Source of the DNA: Candidatus Nealsonbacteria bacterium
GTDB taxonomy: Bacteria; Patescibacteriota; Minisyncoccia; Minisyncoccales; RBG-13-42-11
NCBI GenBank assembly: GCA_026396115.1
Contig: JAPLXL010000002.1
Location: forward strand, 5,142-69,141
DNA length: 64,000 nucleotides
Reading direction: 5' to 3'
The notes under the pieces are model-generated. The model saw only the letters and a program-made list of their open reading frames with translations, was not told the DNA's origin and ran no database searches. Positions 4,108-63,308 of the stretch are shown piece after piece. The number at the start of each line of letters is the position of its first letter. The first letter of the stretch is position 1. Position numbers and translations under genes: made by a program.

Positions 4108-4171
4108 AATTTCGCAGAAATTTCATCTAAGAAGTTTCGTAAATTTCTAACGAAATTCACTCACTAAAACA

Positions 4172-4675
4172 ATGAAACGCTACGAAATTTTAGAGCATAA
4201 AGCTGATTTAAAAATTAAGGTCAAAGGTTCATCAAAAGAAGAACTTTTCCTTAATGCTCTTTTGGGAATGGAGGAAGGATTGAGGCCGGAAACTAAAGAA
4301 ACCAAAGAAGAAATCAAAAGAGAAATTAAAATAAAATCCATTGATTTACCGGCTCTTTTGGTTGATTTTTTGAACGAGGCATTATATCTAATTCAGGTTC
4401 ATAAAGAAATTTATAATAAGATAAAATTTGTTAAATTTTCTGAAAACGAGGGCGAAGAAGATAAATCTTCTTCTTTACTCTTCGCTGCTCGGGTGGGCGA
4501 AGAAAATAAATCTTTTTCTTCCCCCTTCAATACCGCTCGGGAGCTGGAAGGAGAATTAATTGGTCAAAAAGTAGAAAGATTTGGCGAAGACATTAAGGCA
4601 GTTACCTATCACGATTTAGATATCTACCAGAAAGAAGATGGAACCTGGGAGGCAGTTGTTCTTTTCGATATATAA
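4172..4675 (+). CDS. Archease (RtcB activator) carrying two tandem in-frame repeat copies
   Basis: N-terminal YEILEHKADLKIKV and C-terminal IKAVTYHDLDI...WEAVVLFDI are archease-like. Lies directly upstream of rtcB. Confidence 0.8.
   Translation: MKRYEILEHKADLKIKVKGSSKEELFLNALLGMEEGLRPETKETKEEIKREIKIKSIDLPALLVDFLNEALYLIQVHKEIYNKIKFVKFSENEGEEDKSSSLLFAARVGEENKSFSSPFNTARELEGELIGQKVERFGEDIKAVTYHDLDIYQKEDGTWEAVVLFDI
4451..4542. repeat. Two tandem family A type A1 elements, in-frame in the archease gene
   Basis: GGCGAAGAAGATAAATCTTCTTCTTTACTCTTCGCTGCTCGGGT followed by GGGCGAAGAAAATAAATCTTTTTCTTCCCCCTTCAATACCGCTCGGGA. Confidence 0.9.
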
Positions 4676-4716: not shown

Positions 4717-6162
4717 ATGGTTTCTAAAAAAGATTTCAAAAAATTGAACGATTGGCTCTGGGAAATTCCAAAGAGTTTTAGGGCTGATATGAGAGTTCCG
4801 GCCAGGGCTTATGTTTCAGAAAAGATGTTAGAAGAAAGCTTCAAAGATAAATCTCTTGAGCAATTAGTCAATATCTCCACCCTCCCAGGCATACAAAAGT
4901 ATGCTCTATCAATGCCAGATATGCATGAGGGTTACGCATCATGCATAGGTGGTGTAGCAGCAATAAGCACTTTTGATGGAGTGATTTCGCCTGGGGTTTG
5001 CGGTTATGACATCAATTGCGGGATGAAATTGTTAAAATCGGAATATTCGGAAACGGAAATCAAACCTCATTTGGATAAATTAGCTACTGAAATTCAAAAA
5101 GAAGTTCCATCTGGTCTTGGCCAGGGGAGGCAAATTAAACTTTCAATTGGTGAAATAGATAAGATTTTAGAGGGAGGAGTGTCTTATTTAGTTGAAAAAG
5201 GCTATGGTGAAAAAGAAGATATCGAAAACTGTGAGGCAAATGGGAGATTAGATTGGACTGATGCAACGGCAGTTTCAAATTATGCTAAAAATCGGGGAAG
5301 AGATCAGGTTGGGACTCTGGGGTCTGGAAATCATTTCTTGGAACTTCAAAAAGTGGTAGAAATTTTTAATGAAAAAGTAGCAGACGTTTTTGGTTTGTTT
5401 AAAGATCAAATTGTAATCATGATCCATTGCGGGTCAAGGGGTCTCGGCCACCAAGTTTGTACTGATTATTTAAGGACAATGATCCCGGCCATGCAAAGAT
5501 ATAAAATTAAAGTTCCAGATAGAGAATTTGCCTGTGTTCCTTTTAACTCTCCTGAAGGCCAGAGATATTTTTCAGCCATGGCATCGGCAGCAAATTATGC
5601 CTGGGCAAATCGTCAAATGATTGCTCACTTTATTAGAAAAGCTTGGAAAGATGTTTTAGGAGAAAAAGCCTCTCCTTTAGTCGCTCTTTACGATGTTGCC
5701 CACAATATTATTAAAAAAGAAACATATTTAATTAATGGAAAAGAGACTGAAGTTGCAGTTCACAGAAAAGGAGCAACAAGGGCTTTCCCACCTGGTCATT
5801 CTGAGATTCCTGAAAAATATCGAGAAGTTGGTCAACCGGTTTTGATCCCAGGAAGTATGGGAACTGCCTCATATGTTTTAGTTGGAACAAAAGAAGGGGA
5901 GGAAGCCTTCTTTAGTACGTGTCACGGCGCTGGACGTACTATGTCGCGTCATGAAGCCATGAGGCGGGTATCTGGACAAGAAGTGGTAAATAGATTAGAA
6001 TCAAAAGGAATTATTGTTAAGTGTCAAAATTTAAAAGGAATTGCCGAGGAATCTCCTCAGGCGTATAAAAATATTAATGAAGTGGTAGAAGTAGTTCAGA
6101 ATGCCGGTTTATCGAAAAAAGTGGCCAAATTAATCCCTTTAGCCGTGATAAAAGGAGAATAA
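4717..6162 (+). CDS. rtcB: RNA-splicing ligase RtcB
   Basis: 481 aa with GYDINCGM, GSGNHFLE, HCGSRGLGHQV and CHGAGR motifs of the RtcB family. Confidence 0.95.
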   Translation: MVSKKDFKKLNDWLWEIPKSFRADMRVPARAYVSEKMLEESFKDKSLEQLVNISTLPGIQKYALSMPDMHEGYASCIGGVAAISTFDGVISPGVCGYDINCGMKLLKSEYSETEIKPHLDKLATEIQKEVPSGLGQGRQIKLSIGEIDKILEGGVSYLVEKGYGEKEDIENCEANGRLDWTDATAVSNYAKNRGRDQVGTLGSGNHFLELQKVVEIFNEKVADVFGLFKDQIVIMIHCGSRGLGHQVCTDYLRTMIPAMQRYKIKVPDREFACVPFNSPEGQRYFSAMASAANYAWANRQMIAHFIRKAWKDVLGEKASPLVALYDVAHNIIKKETYLINGKETEVAVHRKGATRAFPPGHSEIPEKYREVGQPVLIPGSMGTASYVLVGTKEGEEAFFSTCHGAGRTMSRHEAMRRVSGQEVVNRLESKGIIVKCQNLKGIAEESPQAYKNINEVVEVVQNAGLSKKVAKLIPLAVIKGE

Positions 6163-9170: not shown

Positions 9171-9870
9171 GGACAAAGAATATGCAAAATATTTATTAGA
9201 AAAAACGAGGAACGATTATAACTTGATTGCCGAAGATTTTTCAATGACCCGTGGTTCAATTTGGCCCGAAACCAAGTCTTTGTTTGACAAATATTTTTTC
9301 CCTGGAGAAAAAGTTTTAGACTTAGGATGCGGAAATGGCCGTTATTTTGACTATCTAAAAGAGAAAAAGGTAAATTATTTTGGTGTGGACAATTCTGAAA
9401 AACTAATTGAAATAGCGAAAGCCAGATACCCGGAAGCCGATTTCCAAATGACTGATGCCTTAAATTTACCATTTTCTGATAATTTTTTCGATAAAGTTAT
9501 TAGTATTGCTGTTTTTCACCATATACCTTCGGAAGAATTAAGAATTAGTTTTTTAAATGAAGCAAAAAGAATTTTAAAGCCAGAAGGATTTTTAATTCTA
9601 ACCGTCTGGAATTGGTGGGATTTTCGGGATCTCGAGGGAATCTTTCTAATTTTTAAACTTGCTATTTTAAAATTATTCGGAAAATCGAAATTAGATTTTA
9701 AAGATGTTTTTGATCCTTGGGCAAAAAAAACAGATCTCTATTATCATTGTTTTACTAAAAAGAAATTAAAGAATTTGGTCAAGAAAGTTGATTTTAGAAT
9801 AAGAGAAGTTGGAATTTTAAAAAGGCCGAGGAAAAAAGAAAGCAATATCTTTTTAATAGCTCAAAAATAA
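9169..9870 (+). CDS. Class I SAM-dependent methyltransferase
   Basis: VLDLGCGNGRY motif I. Start at ATG 9169 (MDKEYAKYL). The longer track ORF from 9052 would overlap elp3 antisense. Confidence 0.8.
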   Translation: MDKEYAKYLLEKTRNDYNLIAEDFSMTRGSIWPETKSLFDKYFFPGEKVLDLGCGNGRYFDYLKEKKVNYFGVDNSEKLIEIAKARYPEADFQMTDALNLPFSDNFFDKVISIAVFHHIPSEELRISFLNEAKRILKPEGFLILTVWNWWDFRDLEGIFLIFKLAILKLFGKSKLDFKDVFDPWAKKTDLYYHCFTKKKLKNLVKKVDFRIREVGILKRPRKKESNIFLIAQK

Positions 9871-9874
9871 TAAT

Positions 9875-9946
9875 GTCCCTATAGCTTAATGGATAAAGCG
9901 CAACCCTCCGGAGGTTGAGATCTCCGTTCGACTCGGAGTAGGGACA
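9875..9946 (+). tRNA. tRNA-Arg (anticodon CCG), CCA not encoded
   Basis: Hand-folded cloverleaf: acceptor GTCCCTA/TAGGGAC, anticodon arm CAACC-CTCCGGA-GGTTG, T arm CTCCG-TTCGACT-CGGAG. Confidence 0.9.
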
Positions 9947-10028
9947 CATTTAAAAGCACCGGGGTGAAATTTCTGTTGGGAACATAAAAGTGTGGATAAA
10001 CTGGGGATAGTCCTCTATAAAAAATGAG

Positions 10029-10056
10029 TTGACAAAAGTTTTTGGTTTATTAAACT
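10029..10056 (+). promoter_or_regulatory. Sigma70-like promoter (TTGACA - 16 nt - TAAACT)
   Basis: TTGACA at 10029-10034 and TAAACT at 10051-10056. The predicted start falls near the G-run at 10064. Confidence 0.45.
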
Positions 10057-10063
10057 AATAAAC

Positions 10064-10228
10064 GAGGGGGTGCGGGTTTTTTGCCCAAGGACAGATGGTT
10101 TTTGATAAAGGAGATGATAGCAGCTGCCTGGTTATGTCCACCTGGACTTAAGTAAAAATCAAGTTTGTCAGAAGCTATTCCCCCCTCATTAAACCCCGTT
10201 AGAAAAATTTTCTAGCGGGTTTTAATTT
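10064..10228 (+). ncRNA. Candidate small structured RNA of unknown class, with intrinsic terminator
   Basis: The 5' GAGGGGG (10064-10070) is complementary to CCCCCTC (10181-10187), enclosing about 125 nt. This is followed by the hairpin CCCGTTAGAAAA/TTTTCTAGCGGG plus a T-run (10195-10228). No convincing ORF. Confidence 0.3.
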
Positions 10229-10264
10229 AGACAAAATATTCAAAATTTCTGACGGGGTAAAAAT

Positions 10265-10287
10265 GGGAAGCAATCCTTCCCGTTTTT
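10265..10287 (+). terminator. Intrinsic terminator
   Basis: GGGAAG-CAATC-CTTCCC followed by GTTTTT. Confidence 0.6.
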
Positions 10288-10319
10288 AATTGAATTAAAG
10301 TTATGCTATAATAATTTAT

Positions 10320-10889
10320 ATGAATTATAAAATTGCGGTTTCTGGCGCAGCTCATATTAGTCATTGCTGCAAAGACATTGAAAGATTATCAAAAGAGGTT
10401 GGTCGAGAAATTGCTAAAAAAAAGTGTGTTCTTGTTACCGGCGCTACTACCGGTGTTCCTTATTTTTCCGCTTTGGGATGTGAGGAAGCCGGGGGTTTTA
10501 ATGTGGGTTTTTCGCCGGCCACTTCTGAAGCTGCCCATTTGAAAATTTATAGATTGCCTCTTGATCCTTTTAATATAATGATTTACACCGGTGCTGATTA
10601 TGTGGGCCGTAATGTAATTATGACCAAGTCCGTAGATGGAGTGATTATTATTTGCGGTAGAATGGGAACTTTGCATGAATTTGTCACTGCTTTTGAAATT
10701 CAAAAACCAATTGCCGTTTTGGAGGAAACAGGCGGAATGGCAGACAAGATAAAACAAATTGCCACCGGTCCTCACCGTGGAGTGAAAAAGATTATTTATG
10801 AGAAAGATCCAAAGAAACTGGTTGAAAAATTAATTGCTCAAATCAAAGAAGAAAAGAAAAAAGTCATAAATATTAAAATTAATTCGTAG
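10320..10889 (+). CDS. SLOG/LOG-superfamily Rossmann-fold protein (TIGR00725-like)
   Basis: IAVSGAA...VLVTGATTGVP...IIICGRMGTLHEF pattern of the LOG/TIGR00725 group. Confidence 0.55.
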   Translation: MNYKIAVSGAAHISHCCKDIERLSKEVGREIAKKKCVLVTGATTGVPYFSALGCEEAGGFNVGFSPATSEAAHLKIYRLPLDPFNIMIYTGADYVGRNVIMTKSVDGVIIICGRMGTLHEFVTAFEIQKPIAVLEETGGMADKIKQIATGPHRGVKKIIYEKDPKKLVEKLIAQIKEEKKKVINIKINS

Positions 10890-11026: not shown

Positions 11027-11287
11027 ATGCCAGAAGAAATTGAAGGAAAGTTAATAGGAAAGGTTACTCATTATTTTGGCCAGATTGGAGTAGCGGTGAT
11101 TGATTTTTCTGATAAATTTAAAGTAGGCGAGACAATTAGAATTATTGGGGGAGAGACTGATTTTACCCAACAGGTGGAATCAATGGAGACTGAACATCAA
11201 AAGATTAAGGAAGCCAAAAAAGGAGATTCCATTGGATTAAAAGTAGAACAAAAGGTCCGAGAGGGCTACAAAGTCTATAAAGTTTAA
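11027..11287 (+). CDS. Small beta-barrel protein (translation-elongation-factor domain-2-like)
   Basis: 86-aa ORF. The pattern GKVTHYFGQIGVAVI...GDSIGLKV resembles EF-Tu domain-2-like small proteins. Confidence 0.35.
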   Translation: MPEEIEGKLIGKVTHYFGQIGVAVIDFSDKFKVGETIRIIGGETDFTQQVESMETEHQKIKEAKKGDSIGLKVEQKVREGYKVYKV

Positions 11288-13093: not shown

Positions 13094-13171
13094 GGGCGAA
13101 GAGAACTTCATTCTCTTTTTCAGCTATCCGAATGACAATGAAGGGTTAAGAAGAGATTTATTTCTTCGACC
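13094..13171. repeat. Family A composite element between the endoQ-like gene and ispG (supplies the ispG stop)
   Basis: GGGCGAAGAGAACTTCATTCTCTTT ... GGGTTAAGAAGAGATTTATTTCTTCGACC. Confidence 0.8.
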
Positions 13172-14232: not shown

Positions 14233-14289
14233 AACCGAGCTTACATTTATGGAAGCGAAGGTGAAGAAGAGGACGAATTCCTCTTCACC
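14233..14289. repeat. Family A type A2 element between ispH and ispG
   Basis: AACCGAGCTTACATTTATGGAAGCGAAGGTGAAGAAGAGGACGAATTCCTCTTCACC. Confidence 0.9.
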
Positions 14290-15787: not shown

Positions 15788-16580
15788 TAGATTGCAATAT
15801 TTTCCGTATTTTTAAAGCTTCTTTTTGGGGACGGCAAATGAAAATATCCCCGTTAAATTTCTGATAGTTTTCAGTAATTTTTTTAGCCGTTTCATAGTTA
15901 TTAGTTTCACAAAAAACCGTTGGTCCGGATCCAGAAAGTTTAGTTTCAAGTTTAAATTTTTTAAGATAATTTTCAATTTTTAAGATATCGGGACAAATTT
16001 CTTTGGCCAGGATTGAAAAATTTCTCCCTGTTTTATCATAAAACTTATACATCTTTTTGGTTTCTATTCTTTTGTGAGGTCGAAAAAGAACAAAAACTTT
16101 TGGCAATTTTTTTTTGATAGGGGTTATTTTTTCTCCAATTCCCTCTACTTGACAAGTGCCGCCATAAAAGAAAAAAGGAATGTCGGCGCCTACCATTAGG
16201 CCGATTTGTATTAATTTCTTTCTCCCTAAATTTAATTTATAAAGTAGATTTAAGGCAAGTAAGGTAGCAGCAGCATCAGCGCTGCCGCCGCCAAGGCCGG
16301 CTGAAATTGGAATTGTTTTTTGAAGATGAATTCGGCAAGGAAGTTTTCTGTTTAAAGTTTTTTCTAAGGTTTTTTTAGCTTTTAAAATAATATTCTCTGA
16401 TTTCGGGCAAATTATCGCTCCGGTAAACTCATTTTTCTTGTGTTTTTCAAAAAACAAAAAATCAGAAAGGTTAATTGATTGAAAGACGCTTTTAATTAGA
16501 TGATGTCCGTTAGTTCTTTTTCCTAAAATTTTCAAATCAAGATTTAATTTAGCGTTGGCTTGAATTAAGATGGCATCCAT
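15753..16580 (-). CDS. ispE: 4-diphosphocytidyl-2-C-methyl-D-erythritol kinase
   Basis: GHMP kinase motif PISAGLGGGSADAAA, with an N-terminal KLNLDLKI pattern. Confidence 0.85.
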   Translation of the reverse strand: MDAILIQANAKLNLDLKILGKRTNGHHLIKSVFQSINLSDFLFFEKHKKNEFTGAIICPKSENIILKAKKTLEKTLNRKLPCRIHLQKTIPISAGLGGGSADAAATLLALNLLYKLNLGRKKLIQIGLMVGADIPFFFYGGTCQVEGIGEKITPIKKKLPKVFVLFRPHKRIETKKMYKFYDKTGRNFSILAKEICPDILKIENYLKKFKLETKLSGSGPTVFCETNNYETAKKITENYQKFNGDIFICRPQKEALKIRKILQSNEYCYYFSCRR

Positions 16581-17596
16581 GAAATTAAATTATTTTTTGT
16601 TTCAAATTTGCCTTCCAAGAATTTTTCAATTACCCAAATATTGGTTCGGCAGTGATTTGTGATTTCGGAAATTGTCACTTGACTTTTACCTTTAGATAAA
16701 GCCATATAGGGAAGAATTTGATCGGCTAAATGTCGATCTAAACACGCTTCAGACTTTTGCTCCTTTAATAATTCCAGAGCTGCTTCTTTGCCAACATCTT
16801 CAGCTCTTTTCCCCAATTTCCCTAAATTATCAACTCCCATTAACGTGTTTTCAAATTCTCCGATTAAACAAACTTGGCTGCCTGGAGATTTGGTTTGATG
16901 ATATTCGACTTGTTTTTCAATTGGCAAGTTTAATTTTCCTAGAATTTCTCTTACGCCGGCAATTTGTCTCTCAGCAACTTTTTTTTCTTTTAAAGATTCA
17001 GAAGCGCCAGAGATTGCTAAAAGTTTTTTTAATTGGTTTCTTTCGGTTAAATTAAGGTTTTTTAATCTGGCAGGGAAAACCGTAACTTCTACTTTGGCTC
17101 CGCCTTCTGGATAATAACCTCGTCTTAGAATATTAATTTCTACTTTGCCGTTCATTTTTTTTAGAATTTTCAAAAACACATATTGAAAATAGTCAATAGT
17201 GGGCGAAAAAAAAGTATCGGTTGCTCCGCCATCAAATGTAATTTTGACAGGAAAGAGAGCGAATAAAGCTGGCGGAATTAAAGTTTGCAAAACTAAAGTA
17301 ATGCTTCCGGCAGTTTCAATTTTTATATGTAAGTCCTTCGCCTCAATGTCATGGGGATAAAATTTTATTTCCTGTGAACCTAAAAAATCTCCTTCCAAAT
17401 CAGCGTTGCTTAGTTTAGCTAAGGTTTGAATCCCCAAAAGATGCTGCAGCATTAATCCGGGTTTGAGCCGATTTTTGCGTATATTAAACACCCGGCAAGG
17501 TTTTTTCGTTACTGCCGAGAGAGCACAGGCCGTTCTCAAAATTTGTCCTCCACCAGAGCCGTATGCCCCATCAATTTTAATAGTTTGATATGACAT
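16565..17596 (-). CDS. rtcA: RNA 3'-terminal phosphate cyclase
   Basis: IDGAYGSGGGQILRTA N-terminus and an RtcA-length protein. Confidence 0.88.
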   Translation of the reverse strand: MSYQTIKIDGAYGSGGGQILRTACALSAVTKKPCRVFNIRKNRLKPGLMLQHLLGIQTLAKLSNADLEGDFLGSQEIKFYPHDIEAKDLHIKIETAGSITLVLQTLIPPALFALFPVKITFDGGATDTFFSPTIDYFQYVFLKILKKMNGKVEINILRRGYYPEGGAKVEVTVFPARLKNLNLTERNQLKKLLAISGASESLKEKKVAERQIAGVREILGKLNLPIEKQVEYHQTKSPGSQVCLIGEFENTLMGVDNLGKLGKRAEDVGKEAALELLKEQKSEACLDRHLADQILPYMALSKGKSQVTISEITNHCRTNIWVIEKFLEGKFETKNNLISWMPS

Positions 17597-19223: not shown

Positions 19224-19282
19224 GTCGAAGAGGACGAAGTCCTCTTCTTCACCTTCGCTTTCGCTGCGCGAAAGCTCGGTAT
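19224..19282. repeat. Family A type A2 variant filling the spacer upstream of polX
   Basis: GTCGAAGAGGACGAAGTCCTCTTCTTCACCTTCGCTTTCGCTGCGCGAAAGCTCGGTAT, followed directly by ATG. Confidence 0.9.
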
Positions 19283-22575: not shown

Positions 22576-22618
22576 ATCTAATTATTAATAGGTAATAATA
22601 AATAATCATTAATTTTTG

Positions 22619-22967
22619 TGGAGGCGGTGGGAATCGGACCCACATCTGAGGCGTTTTCCTAAAATAATTCTACGGGATTAGTCCAGTTTTTTCAAAAAGA
22701 TACAGAATTTAAAACGGACAAAATTTCTATATCTTGAATCCGAATATTTTTCAATAGTTTTTCCGGATTCTGAAAGAACTATTTTATCTCGCAAGATTAT
22801 GACACTCGATTTTACCTAGCGAGAATTAGTAAATCGAATGGCATTAAACGTATGCTAATGCAGGTTGTTTGAACAAGTTGGCACTTATTCTTTTTGTTAG
22901 TTTTTACAAGTTCTAACAACTTGGCCCGCTTATTTTAGTTCACTCCTCATCGAATCCTTTCACCCCC
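22619..22967 (-). ncRNA. ssrA: tmRNA (ssrA)
   Basis: The 5' end GGGGGTGAAAGGATTCGATGAGG pairs with the 3' CGCCTCCA acceptor, including a G3:U pair. T arm is GTGGG-TCCGATT-CCCAC. Candidate tag ORF at 22882-22844 reads ANLFKQPALAYV-stop. Adjacent to smpB. Confidence 0.85.
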
Positions 22968-25780: not shown

Positions 25781-28678
25781 ATGGATAAGCTTTCTGAAAT
25801 AGAAAAAAAAGTATTAAATTTTTGGGAAAGGAACAAAATATTTGAGAAATCAATCAAAGAAAGAAAAGGAAAGCCTTTTTTCAGCTTTTATGACGGTCCC
25901 CCTTTTGCTACTGGTATTCCTCATTACGGCCACATTTTAGCGACGACCATAAAGGACACGGTTTTGCGCTACTGGACGATGAAAGGATATCAGGTCCCCA
26001 GAAGGGTTGGTTGGGACTGCCACGGCCTTCCGGTTGAAAATCTGATAGAAAAAGAATTGGGGATAAAAAGCAAAAGAGAGATTGAAGATCTGGGAATTGA
26101 AAAGTTCAACAAGCTCTGCAGAGATTCGGTCTTCAGATGCGTCAAGGAATTTGAAGTCACCCTAAAGAGAGTGGGCCGATGGGCCGACTACAAAAACTAT
26201 TATGCCACTCTGGACAACGACTATATTGAATCGGTCTGGTGGGTTTTCAGCCAGCTGTGGAAAGAAGGGCTGATCTACAAAGATTACAGAGTTAGTCCCT
26301 ATTGTCCCAGATGCGGTACTCCTCTTTCAAACTTTGAGGTTAATCAAGGATACAAAGACGTTAAGGACAATTCGATTTATGTAAAATTCAGGGTTAAGAG
26401 TTCCCGATTCAAAGGTTCCTATCTTTTGGCCTGGACCACGACTCCCTGGACTCTTCCCGGGAACGTCGCCTTAGCGGTTGACCCCAAAGCCAGCTACCTT
26501 TTGGTAAAAGAAGATGGGGAATCGCTGATTTTGGCTAAAGCCCGACTGTCCGTGCTTAAGGGAAAATATAAGATAATAAAGAAACTTAGGGGAAAAGAAT
26601 TGAAAGGCCTAAGATATGACCCCTTGTTTAACTGTTTAAGCGGAGTCCAAAATATTGAAAATGCTTTCCAAATTCTGCCAGCTTCCTTTGTTTCGACCAA
26701 CGAGGGGACGGGAATTGTCCACACTGCGGTGATGTACGGCGAAGATGACTTTCGCCTGGGCAGAAAGTATAATCTGCCTGCGCATCATACGGTTGACGAA
26801 TCGGGAAAGTTCAAGAAAGAGGTAGAGAAGTGGGCGGGCTGCTTTGTCAAGGACACAGAAGGAGAGATTACTGAGGATTTGAGTAAAAGAGGGCTTTTAT
26901 ACAAAAAAGAGGTTATCTTGCATTCTTATCCTTTTTGCTGGAGGTGCGATACGCCTCTGCTTTACTATGCTCTTAATACTTGGTATATTGGCGTTTCCAA
27001 AATTAAAAAGAACTTAATTGAAAATAACAAGAAGATCCGTTGGGTTCCGTCTCATATTAAAAGCGGAAGGTTTGGCAAATGGTTGAAGACTGCCAGGGAT
27101 TGGGCGTTTTCCAGGAATCGCTTCTGGGGCGCTCCGATTCCAATTTGGCAATGTAGAAAATGCGGAGAGTATAAGTGTATTGGCAGCACAAAAGAACTCG
27201 GCGTTAAATTAAAGGATTTGCATCGTCCGTATATTGATAAGATTGAACTAAAATGTAAGTGCGGTAGTAAAATGAAAAGAGTAGAGGAGGTTTTTGACTG
27301 CTGGTTTGAATCAGGGTCCATGCCCTATGCCCAAAGGCATTATCCTTTTGAAAACAAGAAGCTGGTTGAAAGCACATTTCCGGCCGATTTTATTGCCGAA
27401 GGACTGGACCAGACCAGGGGCTGGTTTTATACTCTCCACGTTCTCTCCTCAGCCCTTACTTTGAAAGATAGGGGGCTGGGAAAAAACAAGCCCGCCTTCA
27501 AAAATTCTATTGTCAACGGGATGATTTTAGATTCCCTGGGAAGAAAGCTAAGTAAAAAATTGAGCAATTATCCCGAAACTGGCGAAGTTTTTGAAAAGTA
27601 CGGGGCAGACTCCTTAAGGTATTTCCTTCTCTCTTCTACTCCGATAGGCGAGGATTATCTTTTCTCGGCCAAGGGAGTTGAAGACGCTTACCGAAAGGTT
27701 ATTTCTACTTTATGGCACAGTTATTCCTTCTTCGTAACCTATAAAGACAAGAACTTTAAGCCCAAGCACAGTTTCAAGGTTAATGATGAATTGAACAAAT
27801 GGATTCTTTCAAGACTCAATGCGACAAACAAAGAGGTCTCCTATTGGATGGATAGATACGAGCTTACCAGGGGATCCAGGCTTTTCACAAAATTCATGGA
27901 CGACCTTTCCAACTGGTATATCAGAAGGTCAAGAAGAAAATTCCAAAGAGCCAATAGTCATCGAGAGGGCGAAGAGGATAAATCCTCTTCTTCCCCCTTC
28001 GCTGCGGATCGGGAAAAAGAAGAAGCGTCGCAGGTCCTTTATCAAAGTCTGATGGTTTTGTGCAAAATGATGGCGCCTTTTACTCCTTTTGTGAGTGAAT
28101 ATATTTATCGAGCTCTAAAAATAAAGAAAGATCCGGAATCGGTCCATCTCTGTAATTATCCCAAACCCTTAAAGAGGCTTATTAATCCTGGACTAGAGAA
28201 GATGATGAAAAAAACAAGAGGGATTGTTGTTCTGGCTTTGGCTGAAAGAGCTAAAACAGGGATTAAGGTTCGTCAGCCGTTAAATAAATTGCGAATTGCG
28301 AATTATGAATTACAGAGAGAGAAAAAATTACTGGAGTTGATCAAGGACGAAGTAAATGTAAAAGAAATTAGTTTTGGCAAAACATTAAAATTGGACACTA
28401 AAATTACGCCAGAGCTTAAAGAAGAAGGCATAATTAGAGAAATTATCCGCCAAATTCAGGAAATGAGAAAGATGGCAGGTTATACACCAAAAGATATGAT
28501 TTCAATTCAATTTGATGGTTCGGAAAAGATAGCAGATATTTTAATAAAAAATAAAAATAAAATTATGGTGGAAACAAAGTCCCGAGATTTAAAATTGGGT
28601 AGGAAGGAGAAATTTAAAATTGAAAAAGAAGTAAAGGTCGACAATGAAAATTTATGGTTAGCAATTTTTAAAATTTAA
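25781..28678 (+). CDS. ileS: Isoleucine--tRNA ligase
   Basis: 965 aa with PFATGIPHYGH (HIGH), KLSKKLSN (KMSKS-like) and a CP1 editing domain. In-frame repeat at 27967-28013. Confidence 0.95.
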   Translation: MDKLSEIEKKVLNFWERNKIFEKSIKERKGKPFFSFYDGPPFATGIPHYGHILATTIKDTVLRYWTMKGYQVPRRVGWDCHGLPVENLIEKELGIKSKREIEDLGIEKFNKLCRDSVFRCVKEFEVTLKRVGRWADYKNYYATLDNDYIESVWWVFSQLWKEGLIYKDYRVSPYCPRCGTPLSNFEVNQGYKDVKDNSIYVKFRVKSSRFKGSYLLAWTTTPWTLPGNVALAVDPKASYLLVKEDGESLILAKARLSVLKGKYKIIKKLRGKELKGLRYDPLFNCLSGVQNIENAFQILPASFVSTNEGTGIVHTAVMYGEDDFRLGRKYNLPAHHTVDESGKFKKEVEKWAGCFVKDTEGEITEDLSKRGLLYKKEVILHSYPFCWRCDTPLLYYALNTWYIGVSKIKKNLIENNKKIRWVPSHIKSGRFGKWLKTARDWAFSRNRFWGAPIPIWQCRKCGEYKCIGSTKELGVKLKDLHRPYIDKIELKCKCGSKMKRVEEVFDCWFESGSMPYAQRHYPFENKKLVESTFPADFIAEGLDQTRGWFYTLHVLSSALTLKDRGLGKNKPAFKNSIVNGMILDSLGRKLSKKLSNYPETGEVFEKYGADSLRYFLLSSTPIGEDYLFSAKGVEDAYRKVISTLWHSYSFFVTYKDKNFKPKHSFKVNDELNKWILSRLNATNKEVSYWMDRYELTRGSRLFTKFMDDLSNWYIRRSRRKFQRANSHREGEEDKSSSSPFAADREKEEASQVLYQSLMVLCKMMAPFTPFVSEYIYRALKIKKDPESVHLCNYPKPLKRLINPGLEKMMKKTRGIVVLALAERAKTGIKVRQPLNKLRIANYELQREKKLLELIKDEVNVKEISFGKTLKLDTKITPELKEEGIIREIIRQIQEMRKMAGYTPKDMISIQFDGSEKIADILIKNKNKIMVETKSRDLKLGRKEKFKIEKEVKVDNENLWLAIFKI
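27967..28013. repeat. Family A type A1 element, in-frame in ileS
   Basis: GGGCGAAGAGGATAAATCCTCTTCTTCCCCCTTCGCTGCGGATCGGG. Confidence 0.92.
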
Positions 28679-29063: not shown

Positions 29064-29840
29064 ATGTTCACCCATTACAGAACCCAAGGTTTTATTTTGA
29101 AAAAAAATGACCGAGGAGAATCCAATCAATTATTGACTATTTATACTAAAGATTTTGGCAAATTGGAAATATTGGGCAGAGCAATCAGAAAAATTTCTTC
29201 AAAATTGAGGTCAGGCGCCGAACTTTTTTATTTATCTGAAATTGAGTTTATTCAGGGCAAAACCCACAAAACCTTGACGGATGCGATTTTAATTAACAAT
29301 TTTAAAAACCTAAGAAAAGATTTAACGAGATTAACTATTACCTACAAAATTTCAGAAGTTTTTGATAGATTAGTAAGTGGTCAGGAGTCCGATAAAAAAC
29401 TCTGGCAATTATTAAACGAAACATTCACTAAATTAAACGATTGTCAATCGTCAATTACCGAAGCTTCAACTGAGGTGAAGAAGAAGGAATCTTCTTCGAC
29501 TGTCGATTGTCAATTGTTATATCATTATTTCCTCTGGAACTTCCTTTCTTTATTGGGTTATCAATCGGGGTTTTATCGTTGTTCTTTGTGTCAAAAGAGA
29601 TTGTTCCCGGAGAAACTTTATTTTAGCGCGAAAGAAGGGGGAATAATTTGCAGCCAGTGTCAAAAAAAAACAAAGTCAGAAACCTTAATTGTTTTTCCCG
29701 ACATAGTCAAAATAATTAGAATTTTATTAAAAAAAGATTGGACCTTTTTAGGAAAGTTAAAAGTTGAAATTAAAGACCTTAATTCGTTAAGAACAATTTC
29801 TAATTATTACCTTTCTGAAGTTTTGGAACAAGTTGAATAA
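29064..29840 (+). CDS. recO: DNA repair protein RecO
   Basis: N-terminal OB-fold pattern (GFILKKNDRGESNQLLTIYTKDFGK) and a C-terminal zinc motif CSLC...CSQC. In-frame repeat at 29448-29502. Confidence 0.85.
   Translation: MFTHYRTQGFILKKNDRGESNQLLTIYTKDFGKLEILGRAIRKISSKLRSGAELFYLSEIEFIQGKTHKTLTDAILINNFKNLRKDLTRLTITYKISEVFDRLVSGQESDKKLWQLLNETFTKLNDCQSSITEASTEVKKKESSSTVDCQLLYHYFLWNFLSLLGYQSGFYRCSLCQKRLFPEKLYFSAKEGGIICSQCQKKTKSETLIVFPDIVKIIRILLKKDWTFLGKLKVEIKDLNSLRTISNYYLSEVLEQVE
29448..29502. repeat. Family A sub-module, in-frame in recO, flanked by a perfect 11-bp direct repeat
   Basis: ...TACCGAAGCTTCAACTGAGGTGAAGAAGAAGGAATCTTCTTCGAC... flanked by CGATTGTCAAT at 29437-29447 and 29503-29513. 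Confidence 0.88.
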
Positions 29841-29858: not shown

Positions 29859-30015
29859 GGCGAAGAGGACTTCGTCCGTCGAGTCAAAGACGAGACGAAA
29901 GAAGAAAAACTTTTCTTCGCACTCTTATTCACCTTCGCTTCCATAGTCGAAAGAGAATTTCATTCTCTTTCTCACCTTCGCTTCCTTCGGAAGCTCGGTA
30001 ATGGAAGCTCGGTAT
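29859..30015. repeat. Left inverted-repeat arm (family A2 with nested insertions)
   Basis: Positions 29860-29945 are the reverse complement of 31706-31791 (85/86 by hand alignment). A 54-nt extra family A module lies at 29946-29999. Confidence 0.9.
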
Positions 30016-31692
30016 ATGAAAAAATTTACTATTTTTGTCATTATTTTAACCGTGATAGTTGGGATTTTTGGTTTTTATTATTATCAAAGGAATATTTACT
30101 CAAAAGATATTTTAAGATTGGAAATTTTGGGCCAAGAAGAGACAGAGTTGCTTCAGGAGATTAAATATATTGTAAAGTATAAGAACAACGGAAACGTCAG
30201 GTTGGAAGAGCCGGAGCTCATTTTTGATTATCCTTCTTATTCTATACCCGCAGACGGAACGTCCTTAAGGGTTATTAAAAAATCGGAAGAATTGGGAGGA
30301 GTTATTTATCCCGGCCAGGAAAAAACTTTTACTTTTACAGCCAGGCTTATGGGCCGAGAGGGAGAAATTAAAGAGGCTCAAGTCACATTATCGTATCGAC
30401 CAAAGAATTTAAAAGCTCGTTATGAATCAAAAACTTCATTTACGACAATAATAAAAAAAGTTCCTCTCAATTTTGATTTTGATTTGTCTGCAAAAATTGA
30501 GTCCGGAAAAGAATTAAAATTTAGGTTAAATTATTTCTCGAATGTAGATTATCCGCTTTCCGGCTTGACAATAATGATTGATTATCCTTCAGGTTTTGAA
30601 TTTATTGATTGTACCCCAAAATCTTTAGAAAAAACTGAATGGGATCTTGAGCTTTTGAATAAAGCTGAAGGAGGAAGAGTCGAAATCTCGGGTAAACTGA
30701 TAGGTGAAGTTGGGGAAGAAAAAGTTTTTCGAGCAAGAATAGGCACTTGGCAAGACGGCGAGTTTATTTTGTTAAGGGAAGCAGCCAGAGGAATAACCAT
30801 TATTAGACCGGCTTTATACATTACTCAGCAGATTAACAACAATCCTAAATTTATAGCCAGTCCCGGCAACTTGCTTCATTATGAAATTTTCTTTAAAAAT
30901 ATTGGTGAAGAATTTTTAAGCGATATGTTTTTGCTGGTCACTTTAACCGGTTCAGCCTTTGATTTTAAGACAGTTCAAGCGCCGGAAGGAGATTTTACTC
31001 CGGGAGACAATTCCATAATTTGGGATTGGAGAAAGGTAAGAGATCTCCAGCTTTTGCCCCCTCAATCAGAGGGCAAGATTGAGTTTTGGGTGAAATTGAA
31101 AGATGAATGGGAAATTAAAGGTTTAGAAGACAAAAATCCTGAAATTCTGAGCACAATTTTTTTAAGCCAAGTTAAAGAAGAATTTGTCAATAAGGTTAAT
31201 TCAAAATTAATTGTTTCGCAAAAAGGATACTTTAGCGATGAAGTTTTTGGAAATGTCGGCCCTTTTCCTCCTAAGATTGGAGAAACCACAACTTATACAA
31301 TTATTTGGCAGGTTAAGAACTATTATAACGAGATGAAAGATGTAAAAGTCAAAGCCACTCTGCCCAAAAATGTAAATTTAACCGGTAAAATTTTCCCCGA
31401 AGCAGAAGTTGACAAAATTACTTTTGATTCGCAATCCCGGGAGATAGTTTGGAATGTTGGCGATTTAATGGTTGGACAAGGAGTTTTAAATCAGGGTCCC
31501 AATATTTCTTTCCAGATCGCTTTTTTGCCTGAAGAAAATCAAAAAGGAGAAACTCCGGAATTAATTAGTCAAGCAAAAATTATTGGTCAAGACCAATGGA
31601 CCGGCGAAATCCTCCAGTCTACAGCTTCTTTCATTGACACAACTCTGCAAGACGACCAAGCCATTGCTCCCGGCTCAGGAGTTGTTCAATAA
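30016..31692 (+). CDS. Membrane-anchored multi-beta-sandwich (CARDB/DUF11-like) surface protein, bracketed by inverted repeats
   Basis: N-terminal TM helix (FTIFVIILTVIVGIFGFYYY) followed by repetitive beta-rich segments. Start set at ATG 30016, since the upstream 5 codons are repeat DNA. Confidence 0.6.
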   Translation: MKKFTIFVIILTVIVGIFGFYYYQRNIYSKDILRLEILGQEETELLQEIKYIVKYKNNGNVRLEEPELIFDYPSYSIPADGTSLRVIKKSEELGGVIYPGQEKTFTFTARLMGREGEIKEAQVTLSYRPKNLKARYESKTSFTTIIKKVPLNFDFDLSAKIESGKELKFRLNYFSNVDYPLSGLTIMIDYPSGFEFIDCTPKSLEKTEWDLELLNKAEGGRVEISGKLIGEVGEEKVFRARIGTWQDGEFILLREAARGITIIRPALYITQQINNNPKFIASPGNLLHYEIFFKNIGEEFLSDMFLLVTLTGSAFDFKTVQAPEGDFTPGDNSIIWDWRKVRDLQLLPPQSEGKIEFWVKLKDEWEIKGLEDKNPEILSTIFLSQVKEEFVNKVNSKLIVSQKGYFSDEVFGNVGPFPPKIGETTTYTIIWQVKNYYNEMKDVKVKATLPKNVNLTGKIFPEAEVDKITFDSQSREIVWNVGDLMVGQGVLNQGPNISFQIAFLPEENQKGETPELISQAKIIGQDQWTGEILQSTASFIDTTLQDDQAIAPGSGVVQ

Positions 31693-31791
31693 CCGAGCTT
31701 CCATTTATGGAAGCGAAGGTGAAGAAGAGTGCGAAGAAAAGTTTTTCTTCTTTCGTCTCGTCTTTGACTCGACGGACGAAGTCCTCTTCGC
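31691..31791. repeat. Right inverted-repeat arm (family A2 with one nested insertion)
   Basis: See the left arm. It starts inside the stop codon of the bracketed gene. Confidence 0.9.
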
Positions 31792-31811
31792 TAAAGGTTA
31801 AAATAAAATCA

Positions 31812-47247: not shown

Positions 47248-47816
47248 CAGAATTTAATATGTTAATTGTTGGAACCGGCGGTCAGGGACAGATTACTCTT
47301 TTGCAAGTTTTGGCTGAAGCCGCCTTAATTGAAAATCTTGATTTCAAAAGTTCTGAACTGCACGGCTTATCTCAAAGAGGAGGTTCGGTTGAGGTTCATA
47401 TTAGATTTGGAAAACAAATTTACTCGCCAATGGTTTCAGCCGGAAAAGCTGATTTAATTTTAGGTTTAGAAATGCAAGAAAGTTTAATGGCGGCGAATTT
47501 TGCCGGCCTTAAAACAAATTTTTTGGTTAATAAATATATTGTTCCTATTCCTTTGCAAAAAAACTTATCCGAAAAAGAACTTTTAAACCAATTAAAAAGG
47601 ATTGGTAAAGATGTTTTTTTGGTGCCGGCAACCGAAATCTGTCAGAAAGAATTAGGAACTAACGTAGTTGCCGGAATTTATTTAATAAGCTTAGCCTCTT
47701 TCAAAAAACTAATTCCGATAAGACCAGATTCAATTCTTAAAGCAATGAAAAAAATAATTCCAGAAAAATATCTGGAACTAAATCTCAAAGCCCTTAACCT
47801 TGCACTTAATCAATGA
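47226..47816 (+). CDS. iorB: Indolepyruvate oxidoreductase beta subunit
   Basis: LIVGTGGQGQITL motif. The start could instead be the ATG at 47259. Confidence 0.75.
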   Translation: MHSNKKITEFNMLIVGTGGQGQITLLQVLAEAALIENLDFKSSELHGLSQRGGSVEVHIRFGKQIYSPMVSAGKADLILGLEMQESLMAANFAGLKTNFLVNKYIVPIPLQKNLSEKELLNQLKRIGKDVFLVPATEICQKELGTNVVAGIYLISLASFKKLIPIRPDSILKAMKKIIPEKYLELNLKALNLALNQ

Positions 47817-47868
47817 ATCTTCGATTCATTTCAATCTTCAATAAATTTTCAATTTATTTAGATAACCA

Positions 47869-49197
47869 ATGAATAACTATATTATTCAGGGAGCAAAAAA
47901 ATTAAAAGGAACTGTTGTTGTTAACTCGTCAAAGAATTCGGCATTGGCCATTCTGGCTGGTTCCCTTTTAAATGAAAAAAAGACCATAATAGCCAATCTG
48001 CCAAAAGTTGAAGAAGTTTATAGAATCATTGAAGTTTTAGAAAGTATTGGCGTTAAAACAGAGTGGAAAGGAGGTCATTGTATTGAAATAATTCCTCCCA
48101 AAAAATTAAATCTTGAGAGAATAAATAAAAAATCGGCTGCTCAAACGCGCAGTATTATTTTGTTTTTGGCCGGGCTTTTGCTCAAATTTAAAGATTTTGA
48201 TTTGCCAATGTCTGGGGGATGTCAACTTGGTCGAAGAACAATAATGCCCCATATTTATGCTTTGGAGAATTTTGGAATAAGAATAAAGGATTTTTGCGAT
48301 AAATTGAATATAAGTTATCAAAAACTTCATCCGGCTGAAATTGTAATGTATGAATCAGGAGATACGGCGACAGAAAATGTTATTCTTGCTGCTTCCTTAA
48401 TTCCGGGAAAAAGCGTTATAAAATTTGCCTCTTCTAATTATCAGGTTCAGGACCTCTGCTATTTTCTGAGCGATCTTGGAGTGAAAATTGAAGGAATTGG
48501 AACAACCACTTTGAGAATTTGGGGCAGAAGAAAATTATCCAAAAATATTAGGTATTATTTAACAGAAGATCCGATTGAGTCCATGCTTTTTTTGTCTATT
48601 GCTGCTGTTACAAAATCATCAATTGTTATAAAAAGATGTCCCATAGAATTTTTAGAGTTAGAACTTTTGAAGATGCAAAAAATGGGTTTTCAGTTTAAGA
48701 TATTAAAGAGATATAGGGCAGAAAACGGATATGCTAAGTTAGTTGATATTAAAACTTTCCCCTCTAATTTAACTGCTCCGGTTGAAAAACTTTACGGAAG
48801 ACCCTTTCCCGGGTTAAACATAGACAATCTTCCTTTTTTTGTTCCTATTGCCACCCAGGCAAAAGGAGAGACATTAATTCACGATTGGGTTTATGAAAAC
48901 CGCACTATTTATTATGCTGAGCTAAATCGACTTGGGGCAAAAATAAAACTTGCTGATCCTCATCGAGTTTTTATAACGGGACCATCAAGGTTAAAAGGAT
49001 CGGAAATTATTTGCCCTCCGGCACTGCGGCCTTCAGCCATTATTTTAGTAGCAATGTTGGCAGCAAAAGGAGAATCAGTTCTCAGAAATACTTATGCAAT
49101 TGAAAGAGGATATGAGAATTTAGTTGAAAGATTAGAAGAATTAGGAGCAGACATAAAAAAACAAACATCTGAAAACAACTATGTCAAAAAGACTTAA
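47869..49197 (+). CDS. murA: UDP-N-acetylglucosamine 1-carboxyvinyltransferase
   Basis: 442 aa with the active-site region SGGCQLGRRTI and an EPSP/MurA fold pattern. Confidence 0.9.
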   Translation: MNNYIIQGAKKLKGTVVVNSSKNSALAILAGSLLNEKKTIIANLPKVEEVYRIIEVLESIGVKTEWKGGHCIEIIPPKKLNLERINKKSAAQTRSIILFLAGLLLKFKDFDLPMSGGCQLGRRTIMPHIYALENFGIRIKDFCDKLNISYQKLHPAEIVMYESGDTATENVILAASLIPGKSVIKFASSNYQVQDLCYFLSDLGVKIEGIGTTTLRIWGRRKLSKNIRYYLTEDPIESMLFLSIAAVTKSSIVIKRCPIEFLELELLKMQKMGFQFKILKRYRAENGYAKLVDIKTFPSNLTAPVEKLYGRPFPGLNIDNLPFFVPIATQAKGETLIHDWVYENRTIYYAELNRLGAKIKLADPHRVFITGPSRLKGSEIICPPALRPSAIILVAMLAAKGESVLRNTYAIERGYENLVERLEELGADIKKQTSENNYVKKT

Positions 49198-53081: not shown

Positions 53082-53129
53082 CGCGGCTCTGCCGCGCCGA
53101 TGACAATTTCAAGTTTTTTTTGGCGGCAA
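53082..53129. repeat. Left copy of the ~49-bp direct repeat flanking GC-rich island 1
   Basis: CGCGGCTCTGCCGCGCCGATGACAATTTCAAGTTTTTTTTGGCGGCAA. About 44 of 49 positions match the copy at 53741-53789. Confidence 0.9.
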
Positions 53130-53173
53130 TTGAATTATGAATTTATTTCATTTAAAAATCAATAAAAGAGAAA

Positions 53174-53201
53174 GGGGTTGTGAGATTTCTCTCACAACCC
53201 C
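53174..53201 (-). terminator. Intrinsic terminator of the Cys-rich ORF
   Basis: Perfect 12-bp stem GGGGTTGTGAGA/TCTCACAACCCC, followed on the minus strand by TTTCTCTTTT. Confidence 0.8.
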
Positions 53202-53214
53202 CGTTGGAACGTGT

Positions 53215-53526
53215 CTATATGTCGTCGTAGGCAGACGAGTGTGTGAAGCGCCGACCGCAGCAGTAGCAGAGTGCAATGTAGTAGTTCGTGACGTGATCTT
53301 CTTGCCGTCCGCACTTCTTGCATCGCTGTGTCTGCACTTCCTTCATCTGCGCCATCGGCTTGCCGCAGCACCGAGTGAACCACCAGGTCTTCTTGCCGAA
53401 GATTCCTGGATTGGGCTCGAACCGCTTCTCACCGACGTTTTCCCACTCCGGTCCGTGGTCAAGGCACCTGCCGTGAACACACTGGCCGTGTGGATACTTC
53501 TGACCTGCAAGATTGCTATGTTCCAT
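53215..53526 (-). CDS. Cys/His-rich small protein (103 aa, 9 Cys), putative zinc-binding, in GC-rich island
   Basis: ATG is preceded by AAGGAGG at a 7-nt spacing, with its own promoter and terminator. Contains CKKCG and CYCCG motifs. No family recognised. Confidence 0.6.
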   Translation of the reverse strand: MEHSNLAGQKYPHGQCVHGRCLDHGPEWENVGEKRFEPNPGIFGKKTWWFTRCCGKPMAQMKEVQTQRCKKCGRQEDHVTNYYIALCYCCGRRFTHSSAYDDI

Positions 53527-53573
53527 AGCACATCCTCCTTTCTGGCCACCCGTTTTCTTAGGTGCCAATTAAT

Positions 53574-53601
53574 ATGATACATGAAATCAGTAAAAAGTCA
53601 A
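53574..53601 (-). promoter_or_regulatory. Sigma70-like promoter (TTGACT - 16 nt incl. TG - TATCAT) for the Cys-rich ORF
   Basis: Read on the minus strand: CTCTTGACTTTTTACTGATTTCATGTATCAT. Confidence 0.5.
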
Positions 53602-53740: not shown

Positions 53741-53789
53741 CGCGGCTCCACCGCGCCGATGACAATTTCAAGTTTTTCTTTGGCGGCAA
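53741..53789. repeat. Right copy of the direct repeat flanking GC-rich island 1
   Basis: CGCGGCTCCACCGCGCCGATGACAATTTCAAGTTTTTCTTTGGCGGCAA. Contains the 10-bp-stem hairpin ATCGGCGCGG/CCGCGCCGAT. Confidence 0.9.
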
Positions 53790-58021: not shown

Positions 58022-58140
58022 TTTTTTATCTTATCATTTACTGAGCTTTTATGTAATAAAGGTCAAAGAGATAAATCTCTTTTTCATCTTCGTTTTCGCT
58101 GTGCGAAAACTTGATAAGTGAATAAGAATGAATATTCTTC
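58022..58140. repeat. ~120-bp module upstream of dprA (copy 1)
   Basis: About 114/120 identical (hand alignment) to 61141-61260. Confidence 0.9.
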
Positions 58141-63284: not shown

Positions 63285-63308
63285 AATAAATTAAAAATTC
63301 ATTGAACA

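Follow-up and report, generated by a model that had tools for sequence, protein, structure and literature searches.

A nested, probably mobile two-hairpin repeat upstream of a DUF7619-family gene in a Candidatus Nealsonbacteria genome

Between recO (29064-29840) and a DUF7619-family gene of a Candidatus Nealsonbacteria bacterium lies a 157-nt segment that very probably consists of three copies of one two-hairpin mobile repeat inserted into one another. The segment occupies positions 29859-30015 of the stretch of DNA analyzed here (the window: 64,000 nt, positions 5,142-69,141 of the forward strand of contig JAPLXL010000002.1 in assembly GCA_026396115.1), and we refer to the small two-hairpin repeat as the U unit. 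The family is in all likelihood spreading through the spacers and essential genes of the tiny genomes of Nealsonbacteria, which belong to the Candidate Phyla Radiation (CPR), and we hold with good confidence that U units are non-autonomous, sequence-targeted, hairpin-maintaining mobile repeats whose own motif content drives their nesting, with gene conversion as a second process.

U units follow the plan 5'-G(G/T)CGAAGAG-(hairpin 1)-CTCTTC-TTCACC-TTCGC-(hairpin 2)-GCTCGGT-3', measure 45-58 nt, occur in either orientation, and have a GC content of 0.46-0.56 compared with 0.34 for the genome. The 5' end, GGCGAAGAG, and the 3' end, GCTCGGT (reverse complement ACCGAGC), are not inverted copies of each other, and the hairpins lie 3-7 nt from each end. 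An alignment and a covariance model (R1) were built on 46 simple units from the window and other genomes. In this alignment 95% of the cells assigned to the two hairpins and to a closing ACC/GGT helix are paired, compared with at most 57% when the partners are slid, compensatory changes are present in 12 of the 20 pairs, and the observed score was reached by none of 500 shuffles; both hairpins are maintained by compensatory changes. Simple and composite forms also fold better than shuffles (z-scores -3.4 to -5.2), and the unit motifs have 6-7 matches in the window, where shuffles would give 0-0.9. The modules that were initially labeled A, B, and C share this one plan with both inserts of the nested segment, and the model recovers the two inserts together with the B and C modules, the recO module scoring 26 bits on the minus strand. 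In total, the scan of the window gives ~25 units at ~14 loci, which make up ~2% of its length.

The nested segment resolves into a 56-nt host U unit with two inserts, one of 45 nt at the hairpin 1 top and one of 54 nt in the hairpin 2 loop (Table 1). Insert 2 is recognized by the covariance model on the plus strand with 62 bits (E 3.6e-17), and a guest of its kind is found at the equal position, the hairpin 2 loop, in topA of the related locus L011. Insert 1 is a weak match on the minus strand (16.2 bits, E ~0.005), and it also aligns to standalone U-type relatives such as the TatD insertion of L002; on these scores and this alignment the composite reads as a forward host with one inverted and one forward unit. 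An inverted arm downstream of the DUF7619-family gene carries insert 1 and lacks insert 2, and the two arms are 99% complementary over 86 nt. An earlier, sequence-only reading of the window had described the basic unit in topA, the layout of the composite in both arms, and the 54-nt insert restricted to the left arm, all of which agree with the sequence; it had given the first insert a length of 46 nt, which we measure as 45 nt, and had placed it otherwise than we do, the actual site being the apex and 3' arm of hairpin 1 (GTCC/TCTTC, with a 1-nt ambiguity) and no loop. The hairpin attributed to insert 1 is not self-contained, as part of the insert pairs with the host loop region. The sequence GGAAGCTCGGTA, also noted before as duplicated, is indeed present twice, at 29989-30000 and 30003-30014, but the two copies do not amount to a target-site duplication, because guest and host share identical 3' ends. 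After the end of the host at 30013 the sequence continues with AT and then with the ATG of the DUF7619-family gene at 30016.

Relatives were gathered by way of two proteins and two DNA scans; the window's own genome was absent among the genome-collection matches, the best of which is 76% identical. The related locus L074 is a 291-kb contig with 90-96% nucleotide identity to the window, L002 is ~92-94% identical, with a DUF7619 protein (shared by L003) that is 98% identical to that of the window, and L001 is a short contig of the window's own population that ends inside the composite. At the recO/DUF7619 site L002/L003 and L005 are empty, L074 has the host unit alone, and the window and L001 have the triple composite; the L074 sequence is that of the window minus both inserts, with identical flanks. 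These alleles show that the spacer received a U unit just ahead of the DUF7619-family start codon and that L074 preserves that state. At the site of the right arm L074 has the same inverted host and flanks with a forward C-type guest in the linker, followed by AGGTGA, where the window has insert 1 in hairpin 1, and L002 has no host unit. The 61.2-kb locus is a simple unit with the canonical linker CACTTTCGCTT in L008 and a nested composite with an extra B unit in the window, and the L008 unit cannot derive from the composite by deletion, since the composite lacks that linker. The composite at 58040-58145 corresponds to an empty site in L008 and L011, so composites move as wholes, and host-plus-insert-1 composites occur at three other loci in L074 and L008, where hairpin 2 differs and insert 1 is almost unchanged. 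Whole units account for the majority of the indels of at least 12 nt between the window and L002, and the comparison overall shows that a unit or composite is copied entire when it reaches a new site. A nesting built up through several rounds of insertion, which the sequence-only reading had put forward, is thus strongly supported by the empty, simple, and triple alleles at the recO/DUF7619 site, the differing guests of the right arm, and the moved 58-kb composite.

The reverse order, in which the composite is ancestral and the shorter copies are its deletion derivatives, is very improbable and by now largely refuted. It can draw on the proneness of hairpin-rich DNA to deletion, on L036, where a partial deletion has occurred, and on the consideration that some simple alleles could be secondary if mobility involves precise excision. 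The multiple alignment of copies, run with the relatives to obtain the order of insertion, nevertheless goes against it: deletions at random positions are not seen, each breakpoint is the end of a complete unit, and all differences between composite and simple forms are complete units with canonical ends. In addition to the linker kept by the simple L008 unit, no form is as common across many genomes as the simple unit with the canonical hairpin 2, CCATAAATGG, the outgroup alleles of L002 and L005 are empty, and one host has different guests in two lineages. A composite transposon made up of the two inverted arms with the DUF7619-family gene as its cargo was considered and rejected, as L002 has the same gene in the same place with neither arm.

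The insertion sites share a sharp motif. The base at +4 is T in 54 of 68 distinct 3' flanks, G is found at +5 in 52 of them and A at +6 in 65, and TGA occupies +4 to +6 in 43 of them compared with a background of 1.6% (binomial P ~1e-59); the base at -1 is A in 66 of 98 flanks. TGA is also there in the empty alleles, so the motif is part of the target and not of the element. Exactly 2 nt ahead of the start codon of a long open reading frame (ORF) is where 15 of the 68 units end, a placement that follows from the fit of ATGA to the target motif, and ~24 of the 68 are in open frames, mostly antisense. The same flank rule holds for guests and tandem neighbors, +4 being T or C, and the orientation of a guest is that of the strand bearing the motif. 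Insert 1 is followed by GGACGA, on the reverse strand of the hairpin 1 TTCG loop; guests at the hairpin 2 base (L040, L041, and L066) by AAGCGA; linker guests by AGGTGA or AGTTGA on the reverse strand of the linker; and tandem units by AGGCGA, GGGCGA, or GGTCGA, provided by the 5' end of the next unit in the array.

A preference for existing hairpins as targets, as the sequence-only reading had it, is therefore not the best interpretation of the nesting. Guests are found at four positions inside units, and just one of these, in hairpin 2, is a loop, the rest being the hairpin 1 apex/3' arm, the linker between hairpins 1 and 2, and the hairpin 2 5' arm, and the guests share their flank rule with insertions into unique DNA, so that a short embedded motif explains self-nesting better than hairpin structure does. 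Structure may still contribute to guest placement, since structure and sequence are confounded within the unit. A U unit inserts with its 3' end three bases upstream of TGA (or CGA), and the unit has YGA motifs of its own at the places taken by guests, in the orientation that fits: one at its 5' end and, on the other strand, one each in the linker, the TTCG loop, and the hairpin 2 base. From these motif copies it would follow that new copies tend to land beside or inside old ones in a predictable orientation, giving rise to tandem arrays and Russian dolls; in the window lineage the resident unit bears an inverted unit at the hairpin 1 top and a forward one in the hairpin 2 loop. The reverse-strand CGA at the extreme 3' end of the unit predicts tail-to-tail or head-to-head pairs, of which none were found, so that copy of the motif is not used. 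Units are often embedded in 7-nt tandem repeats containing the target motif, namely (AAAAATC)n in topA (56478-56515) and (TTTTGAT)n, (GTTTTGA)n, and (AACTTTG)n elsewhere (L065:7380-7500, L068:2140-2260, and L029:6440-6540), and these repeats may be insertion hot spots or footprints.

Several observations weigh against this account. Neither the scanned window ORFs nor the gene tables of the related loci contained a transposase, HUH nuclease, recombinase, or reverse transcriptase, so the mobilization step is one that we infer, and the fetched loci contained no 5' half-unit with a downstream 3' half within 4 kb that would mark an autonomous parent element. Direct repeats at the junctions of filled/empty pairs are 0 nt (LeuRS and the 58-kb site), 7 nt (IleRS), or ~11-13 nt (recO), a spread that does not fit a single clean transposition chemistry. 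Insert 1 was never seen standalone, its occurrences so far being confined to hairpin 1 of other units, and its near-identity in hosts with different hairpin 2 sequences means that it may spread by gene conversion instead of its own insertion. Different subfamily members at the recO site in three strains represent replacement and not insertion only, the units show no strand bias in the window, a small sample, where a mechanism using lagging-strand single-stranded DNA would predict one, and the flank rule has exceptions (AATGGA for hairpin 2 loop guests, GATTAA for two linker guests, and GGACAA for one insert 1 host).

It is possible, if the less probable course, that the nested and swapped states arose mainly from homologous recombination, gene conversion, or template switching between copies sharing CGAAG/CTTCG and not from fresh guests, in which case the Russian doll at 29859-30015 would be a chimera copied from composites elsewhere; such an explanation complements the one based on motif-directed insertion and does not exclude it. 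The confinement of a nearly identical insert 1 to hairpin 1 of otherwise different hosts would suit it, as would the recO site, whose occupant between common flanks is a C unit in one of three strains, an A-type unit in another, and two C units in the third. L036 retains a guest and an orphan host 3' end, as a deletion between direct repeats would leave, the IleRS junction has the 7-nt microhomology ATCGRGA, and merger and shuffling have likewise been proposed for yeast mitochondrial GC clusters (PMC4478555). Against this, units and composites also occur where the DNA is unique and no unit was resident (LeuRS, IleRS, the 58-kb site, and the recO/DUF7619 spacer), and there the insertions obey the same flank rule as the nested ones, and conversion is unable to make the first nested copy. 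Alongside motif-directed insertion, recombination or gene conversion between copies would swap units at a site, and the recO alleles suggest that units are probably also exchanged in this way.

Units in frame within genes were found in topA, IleRS, uvrB, archease, and recO of the window and in LeuRS and TatD of L002. All coding copies examined have net lengths that are multiples of 3 (48, 45 + 48, 45, 57, 57, 90, and +51 nt) and are stop-free; a length divisible by 3 was rejected as a property of the family itself, since simple units measure 53-58 nt and only copies in genes are so constrained. The topA unit adds NRASIHGSECEEEDEVLFAF in a loop of variable length among homologs and is missing in a 94%-identical ortholog (P0001/L008), while a 71%-identical relative (P0084/L011) has the unit at the same junctions with two further nested units, in frame. 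The peptide contributed by B units is (E)GEEDKSSSSPFA..RE in IleRS and uvrB, and archease has it twice. The recO site is filled in frame, between shared flanks, in all three strains compared: by a C unit in the window, by an A-type unit of 57 nt in L074, and by a tandem pair of C units in L002. An 11-14 nt direct repeat flanks the recO unit in the window (29438-29451 and 29504-29517, CGATTGTCAATCG and CGATTGTCAATTG, with the peptide DCQ on both sides), which most other insertions do not have. The window also encodes archease (4172-4675), the RtcB RNA ligase (4717-6162), and, 10 kb away, the RNA 3'-phosphate cyclase RtcA (16565-17596). The presence of these three enzymes and the compact hairpins of the units would be in keeping with hairpin-type mini-introns that are cut from the RNA, the exons being rejoined by RtcB/archease, yet we regard this as barely credible: every coding copy examined is in frame and stop-free, which splicing would make needless, the nested coding copies in topA of L011 keep the frame as well, and a splicing endonuclease was not seen. 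The in-frame state of the coding copies thus disfavors removal of the units by RtcB/archease splicing.

It is also improbable that the units are functional structured RNAs (5' leaders, stabilizers, or small RNAs) with variable expansion segments under selection in place of mobile DNA. The strong covariation in both hairpins and the closing ACC/GGT helix would be expected of such RNAs, and the 15 units that abut start codons stand in a genome where leaders could matter, since it is essentially without Shine-Dalgarno motifs: across the gene starts of the window even a loose match is found upstream of only 5 of 54 genes, which suggests that translation initiation is Shine-Dalgarno-independent. 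The leaders upstream of window genes are AT-rich. However, units occur in both orientations relative to transcription, they also lie within coding regions, where most are antisense and in frame, their presence varies between strains that are ~92-94% identical, and the association with start codons is explained by the ATGA/TTGA target motif and the tolerance for insertion there. Nor is there an Rfam match to the unit; in the window the gathering score was reached only by tmRNA and two tRNAs, and nothing between 29700 and 32000 had an E-value below 0.25. Some copies may have acquired a secondary, co-opted function.

The window has a GC content of 34% with uniform GC skew and carries housekeeping genes, its proteins have their closest homologs in Candidatus Nealsonbacteria and Parcubacteria-type Patescibacteria, and its gene content and homologs are those of free Patescibacteria genomes. 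Full units were found in 40 of 61 genome-collection loci, all of them Patescibacteria-type metagenome-assembled genomes and including one complete Nealsonbacteria genome, and there were none among 21 chance matches from other phyla. Carriage by phages was rejected, as 15 IMG/VR matches to a 19-mer were chance matches in coding DNA with no full unit. In the literature we found no description of such repeats in CPR/Patescibacteria or of the core sequence, which is not proof of absence.

The closest analogues are the Rickettsia palindromic elements (RPEs) and the double-hairpin and GC-cluster elements of mitochondria. RPEs (Ogata et al. 2000, 2002) are ~100-150 bp palindromic selfish repeats that occur in spacers and in frame in housekeeping genes (PMC10969869). 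U units resemble them as small palindromic selfish repeats of a reduced genome that reside in spacers and, in frame, in unrelated protein genes of the housekeeping type, to which they add short peptides, with no transposase known and no clear terminal repeats. They differ in their 45-58 nt length and in belonging to Patescibacteria as opposed to Alphaproteobacteria, with no sequence relationship established, and membership by descent is unlikely because the host is a Nealsonbacteria-like patescibacterium. Further features that set U units apart are the NNN-TGA flank motif, the placement 2 nt before start codons, the routine self-nesting, and the tandem arrays. We know of no description of a flank motif, start-codon placement, self-nesting, or tandem arrays for RPEs.

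Mitochondrial double-hairpin elements and GC clusters were reportedly treated by Paquin et al. 2000 and Weiller et al. 1989. U units share with them stems that are more conserved than loops, single and tandem copies, a short preferred target, and the lack of a known dedicated enzyme. The mitochondrial elements are short, GC-rich hairpin elements in an AT-rich small genome and are polymorphic among relatives (Wu and Hao 2015, PMC4478555), and U units too are short, GC-rich, two-hairpin elements of an AT-rich genome that are polymorphic between relatives. In contrast, the mitochondrial elements are organellar and use an AG/TAG-type dinucleotide target with duplication, whereas U units reside in a bacterial and not an organelle genome and use NNN-TGA with no consistent duplication, nor would sequence similarity be expected, which makes the mitochondrial elements an analogue and not a family to which U units belong.

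Other families of small repeats are less similar. Repetitive extragenic palindromic (REP) sequences, with bacterial interspersed mosaic elements and REPINs, which RAYT (Y1/HUH) transposases mobilize, are also hairpin-based, without terminal inverted repeats and usually without target duplication (REP review, PMC3733652), and elements of the insertion sequence (IS) families IS200/IS605 are inserted beside a particular 4-5 nt sequence of one strand, comparable to the reverse-strand TCA-NNN/ rule of U units. U units differ from both in having no GTAG/CGTC head, in not being only extragenic, in showing no strand bias in the window, and in the degeneracy of the three bases adjoining the junction. 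Where REP sequences are 20-40 nt imperfect palindromes, U units are two-hairpin elements of 45-58 nt that start with G(G/T)CGAAG and are also intragenic, and the scanned window ORFs and neighboring gene tables of related loci showed no RAYT (Y1 transposase) or TnpA gene. With regard to palindrome-associated elements derived from IS200/IS605, the hairpins of U units lie close to the ends and NNN-TGA is a strong flank motif, yet the bases next to the junction are degenerate and some sites have direct repeats, and U units do not have the replication-orientation bias of those families, as unit numbers are similar on both strands and the GC skew is uniform, in a small sample. [quoted passage not shown] MITEs, however, have terminal inverted repeats derived from a parent IS and fixed-length target-site duplications, whereas U units have no terminal inverted repeats and, in filled/empty pairs, direct repeats of 0, 7, or ~11-13 nt; the genome fragments examined contained no matching split halves or transposase domains of a parent IS. 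BOX modules are concatenated, whereas U units are nested in one another.

We put forward only as a speculative and rather unlikely proposal that U units are moved in these 0.6-1 Mb genomes, which have no recognizable transposase, by an undescribed mechanism that reads TGA/CGA at a fixed three-base offset and that, through landings 2 nt ahead of start codons and in frame within essential enzymes, they actively generate variation in the leaders and proteins of CPR bacteria. The motif might be read by the invariant linker TTCA of the unit, the complement of which is found in TGAA, or else by a repair or replication enzyme of the host that acts on the hairpins. U units mean that streamlined CPR genomes still bear selfish DNA, which alters essential proteins (those of topA, IleRS, LeuRS, uvrB, recO, and archease) and abuts start codons. 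A mechanism has long been lacking for small hairpin repeats that spread without an obvious enzyme, such as RPEs, mitochondrial GC clusters, and double-hairpin elements, and U units are a tractable case: strains that are 90-98% identical hold empty, single, and nested alleles at the same sites, the motif is sharp, and the rule predicts the place and orientation of nesting, which together make a natural experiment. On the practical side, the units break short-read assemblies, as at the end of L001, and add spurious-looking inserts to protein alignments of Patescibacteria.

Table 1. U units and related features of the window
Feature	Position	Strand	Sequence and remarks
Host U unit, 5' part	29859-29877	+	GGCGAAGAGGAC TTC GTCC; hairpin 1 5' arm, loop, and start of 3' arm; contiguous with other host parts in un-nested L074 allele
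Insert 1, 45 nt, inverted U-type unit	29878-29922	-	GTGCGAAGAAAAGTTTTTCTTCTTTCGTCTCGTCTTTGACTCGAC (minus-strand reading); hairpin 2 reduced; assigned from covariance model, alignment to standalone units, and absence from L074 host
Host U unit, middle part	29923-29945	+	Rest of hairpin 1 3' arm, linker TTCACCTTCG, hairpin 2 5' arm through loop base A
Insert 2, 54 nt, complete forward U unit	29946-29999	+	GTCGAAAGAGAAT TTC ATTCTCTTTC-TCACC-TTCGCTTCC TTCG GGAAGCTCGGT; in host hairpin 2 loop
Host U unit, 3' part	30000-30013	+	AATGGAAGCTCGGT
Target motif ATATGA	30014-30019	+	Includes ATG start (30016) of DUF7619-family gene; in empty allele too
Right arm: inverted host U unit (31774-31792 + 31692-31728) with insert 1 (31729-31773)	31692-31792	-	Between DUF7619-family stop codon and class II aminoacyl-tRNA synthetase gene
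Simple U unit in topA	56516-56571	+	GGCGAAGAGGACTTCGTCC/TCTTCTTCACATTCGCTTCCATGAATGGAAGCTCGGT = GGCGAAGAGGAC-TTC-GTCCTCTTC-TTCACA-TTCGCTTCCAT-GA-ATGGAAGCTCGGT; antisense, in frame; peptide NRASIHGSECEEEDEVLFAF
Simple U unit	14234-14289	-	Ends 2 nt ahead of ispG (GcpE) start codon
Simple U unit	19224-19280	+	Ends 2 nt ahead of PolX gene start codon
Composite, 106 nt: host U unit with guest 58062-58115 (+) in linker	58040-58145	-	L008 and L011 empty here
Composite with guest 61182-61235 (+)	61160-61264	-	96% identical to 58040-58145 copy; L008 ortholog simple, un-nested
B-type U unit	61265-61311	-	Head-to-tail tandem with 61160-61264 composite; missing in L008
Host U unit with inverted C-type guest (61932-61974) in linker	61901-62001	+	Ends 2 nt ahead of HisRS start codon (62004)
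Host U unit with guest 525-567 (+) in linker	498-598	-	Guest 3' flank AGTTGA
B-type unit, 48 nt, in class I (Ile-type) tRNA synthetase gene	27967-28014	+	In frame; missing in L002; IleRS peptide EGEEDKSSSSPFAADRE
Two tandem B-type units (45 + 48 nt) in archease gene	4450-4542	+	In frame
B-type unit in uvrB	1611-1658	-	In frame, sense to gene
C-type unit, 45 nt, in recO	29457-29501	-	In frame; other units at site in L074 and L002
B-type unit near window start	46-93	-	
Degenerate U-type composite between two genes	13095-13165	+	
AT-rich double-hairpin unit, related subfamily	4100-4165	+	Upstream of archease; 90% copy at recO/DUF7619 site of L004

Some smaller features accompany the units. An orphan 3' end on the plus strand (TACCGAGATTTAG, 599-612) adjoins the composite at 498-598 and is probably the remnant of a decayed unit; a similar orphan 3' end, identical to the 3' part of the host in the nested segment, is at L036:754-767. 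Another hairpin module, AT-rich and of the form AATGAAT-N5-ATTCATT, is found repeatedly in spacers (47809-47870, 63274-63327, 63628-63681, and L008:4090-4150) and often has TCACCTTCGA after it, and in L002 (6300-6335) the AATGAAT module occupies the site of the right arm, with the 7-nt direct repeat GTTCAAT on both flanks. Two 40-nt copies of CGCGGCTCTGCCGCGCCGATGACAATTTCAAGTTTTTTTT, 93% identical, at 53082-53121 and 53741-53780 flank a 146-aa ORF (53137-53577) and resemble GC-hairpin and T-run terminators or another repeat family.

Differences of gene order and content were also seen around the units. In L074 two host-plus-insert-1 composites (9590-9693 and 11098-11203) bracket a smpB-tmRNA-infC block, which in the window (22616-22967) is without them, and L074 joins this block directly to the IleRS-recO region, a gene order unlike that of the window. 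Across the class I aminoacyl-tRNA synthetase gene (26001-28000) the GC content is 0.43 compared with ~0.34 elsewhere, of which the 48-nt unit accounts for part only. Finally, between the TP_methylase and class I aminoacyl-tRNA synthetase genes of L004 lies a 402-aa ORF (9190-10398) with helix-turn-helix and weak LAGLIDADG matches, which is in neither the window nor L002 and may be a mobile gene resembling those of homing endonucleases.

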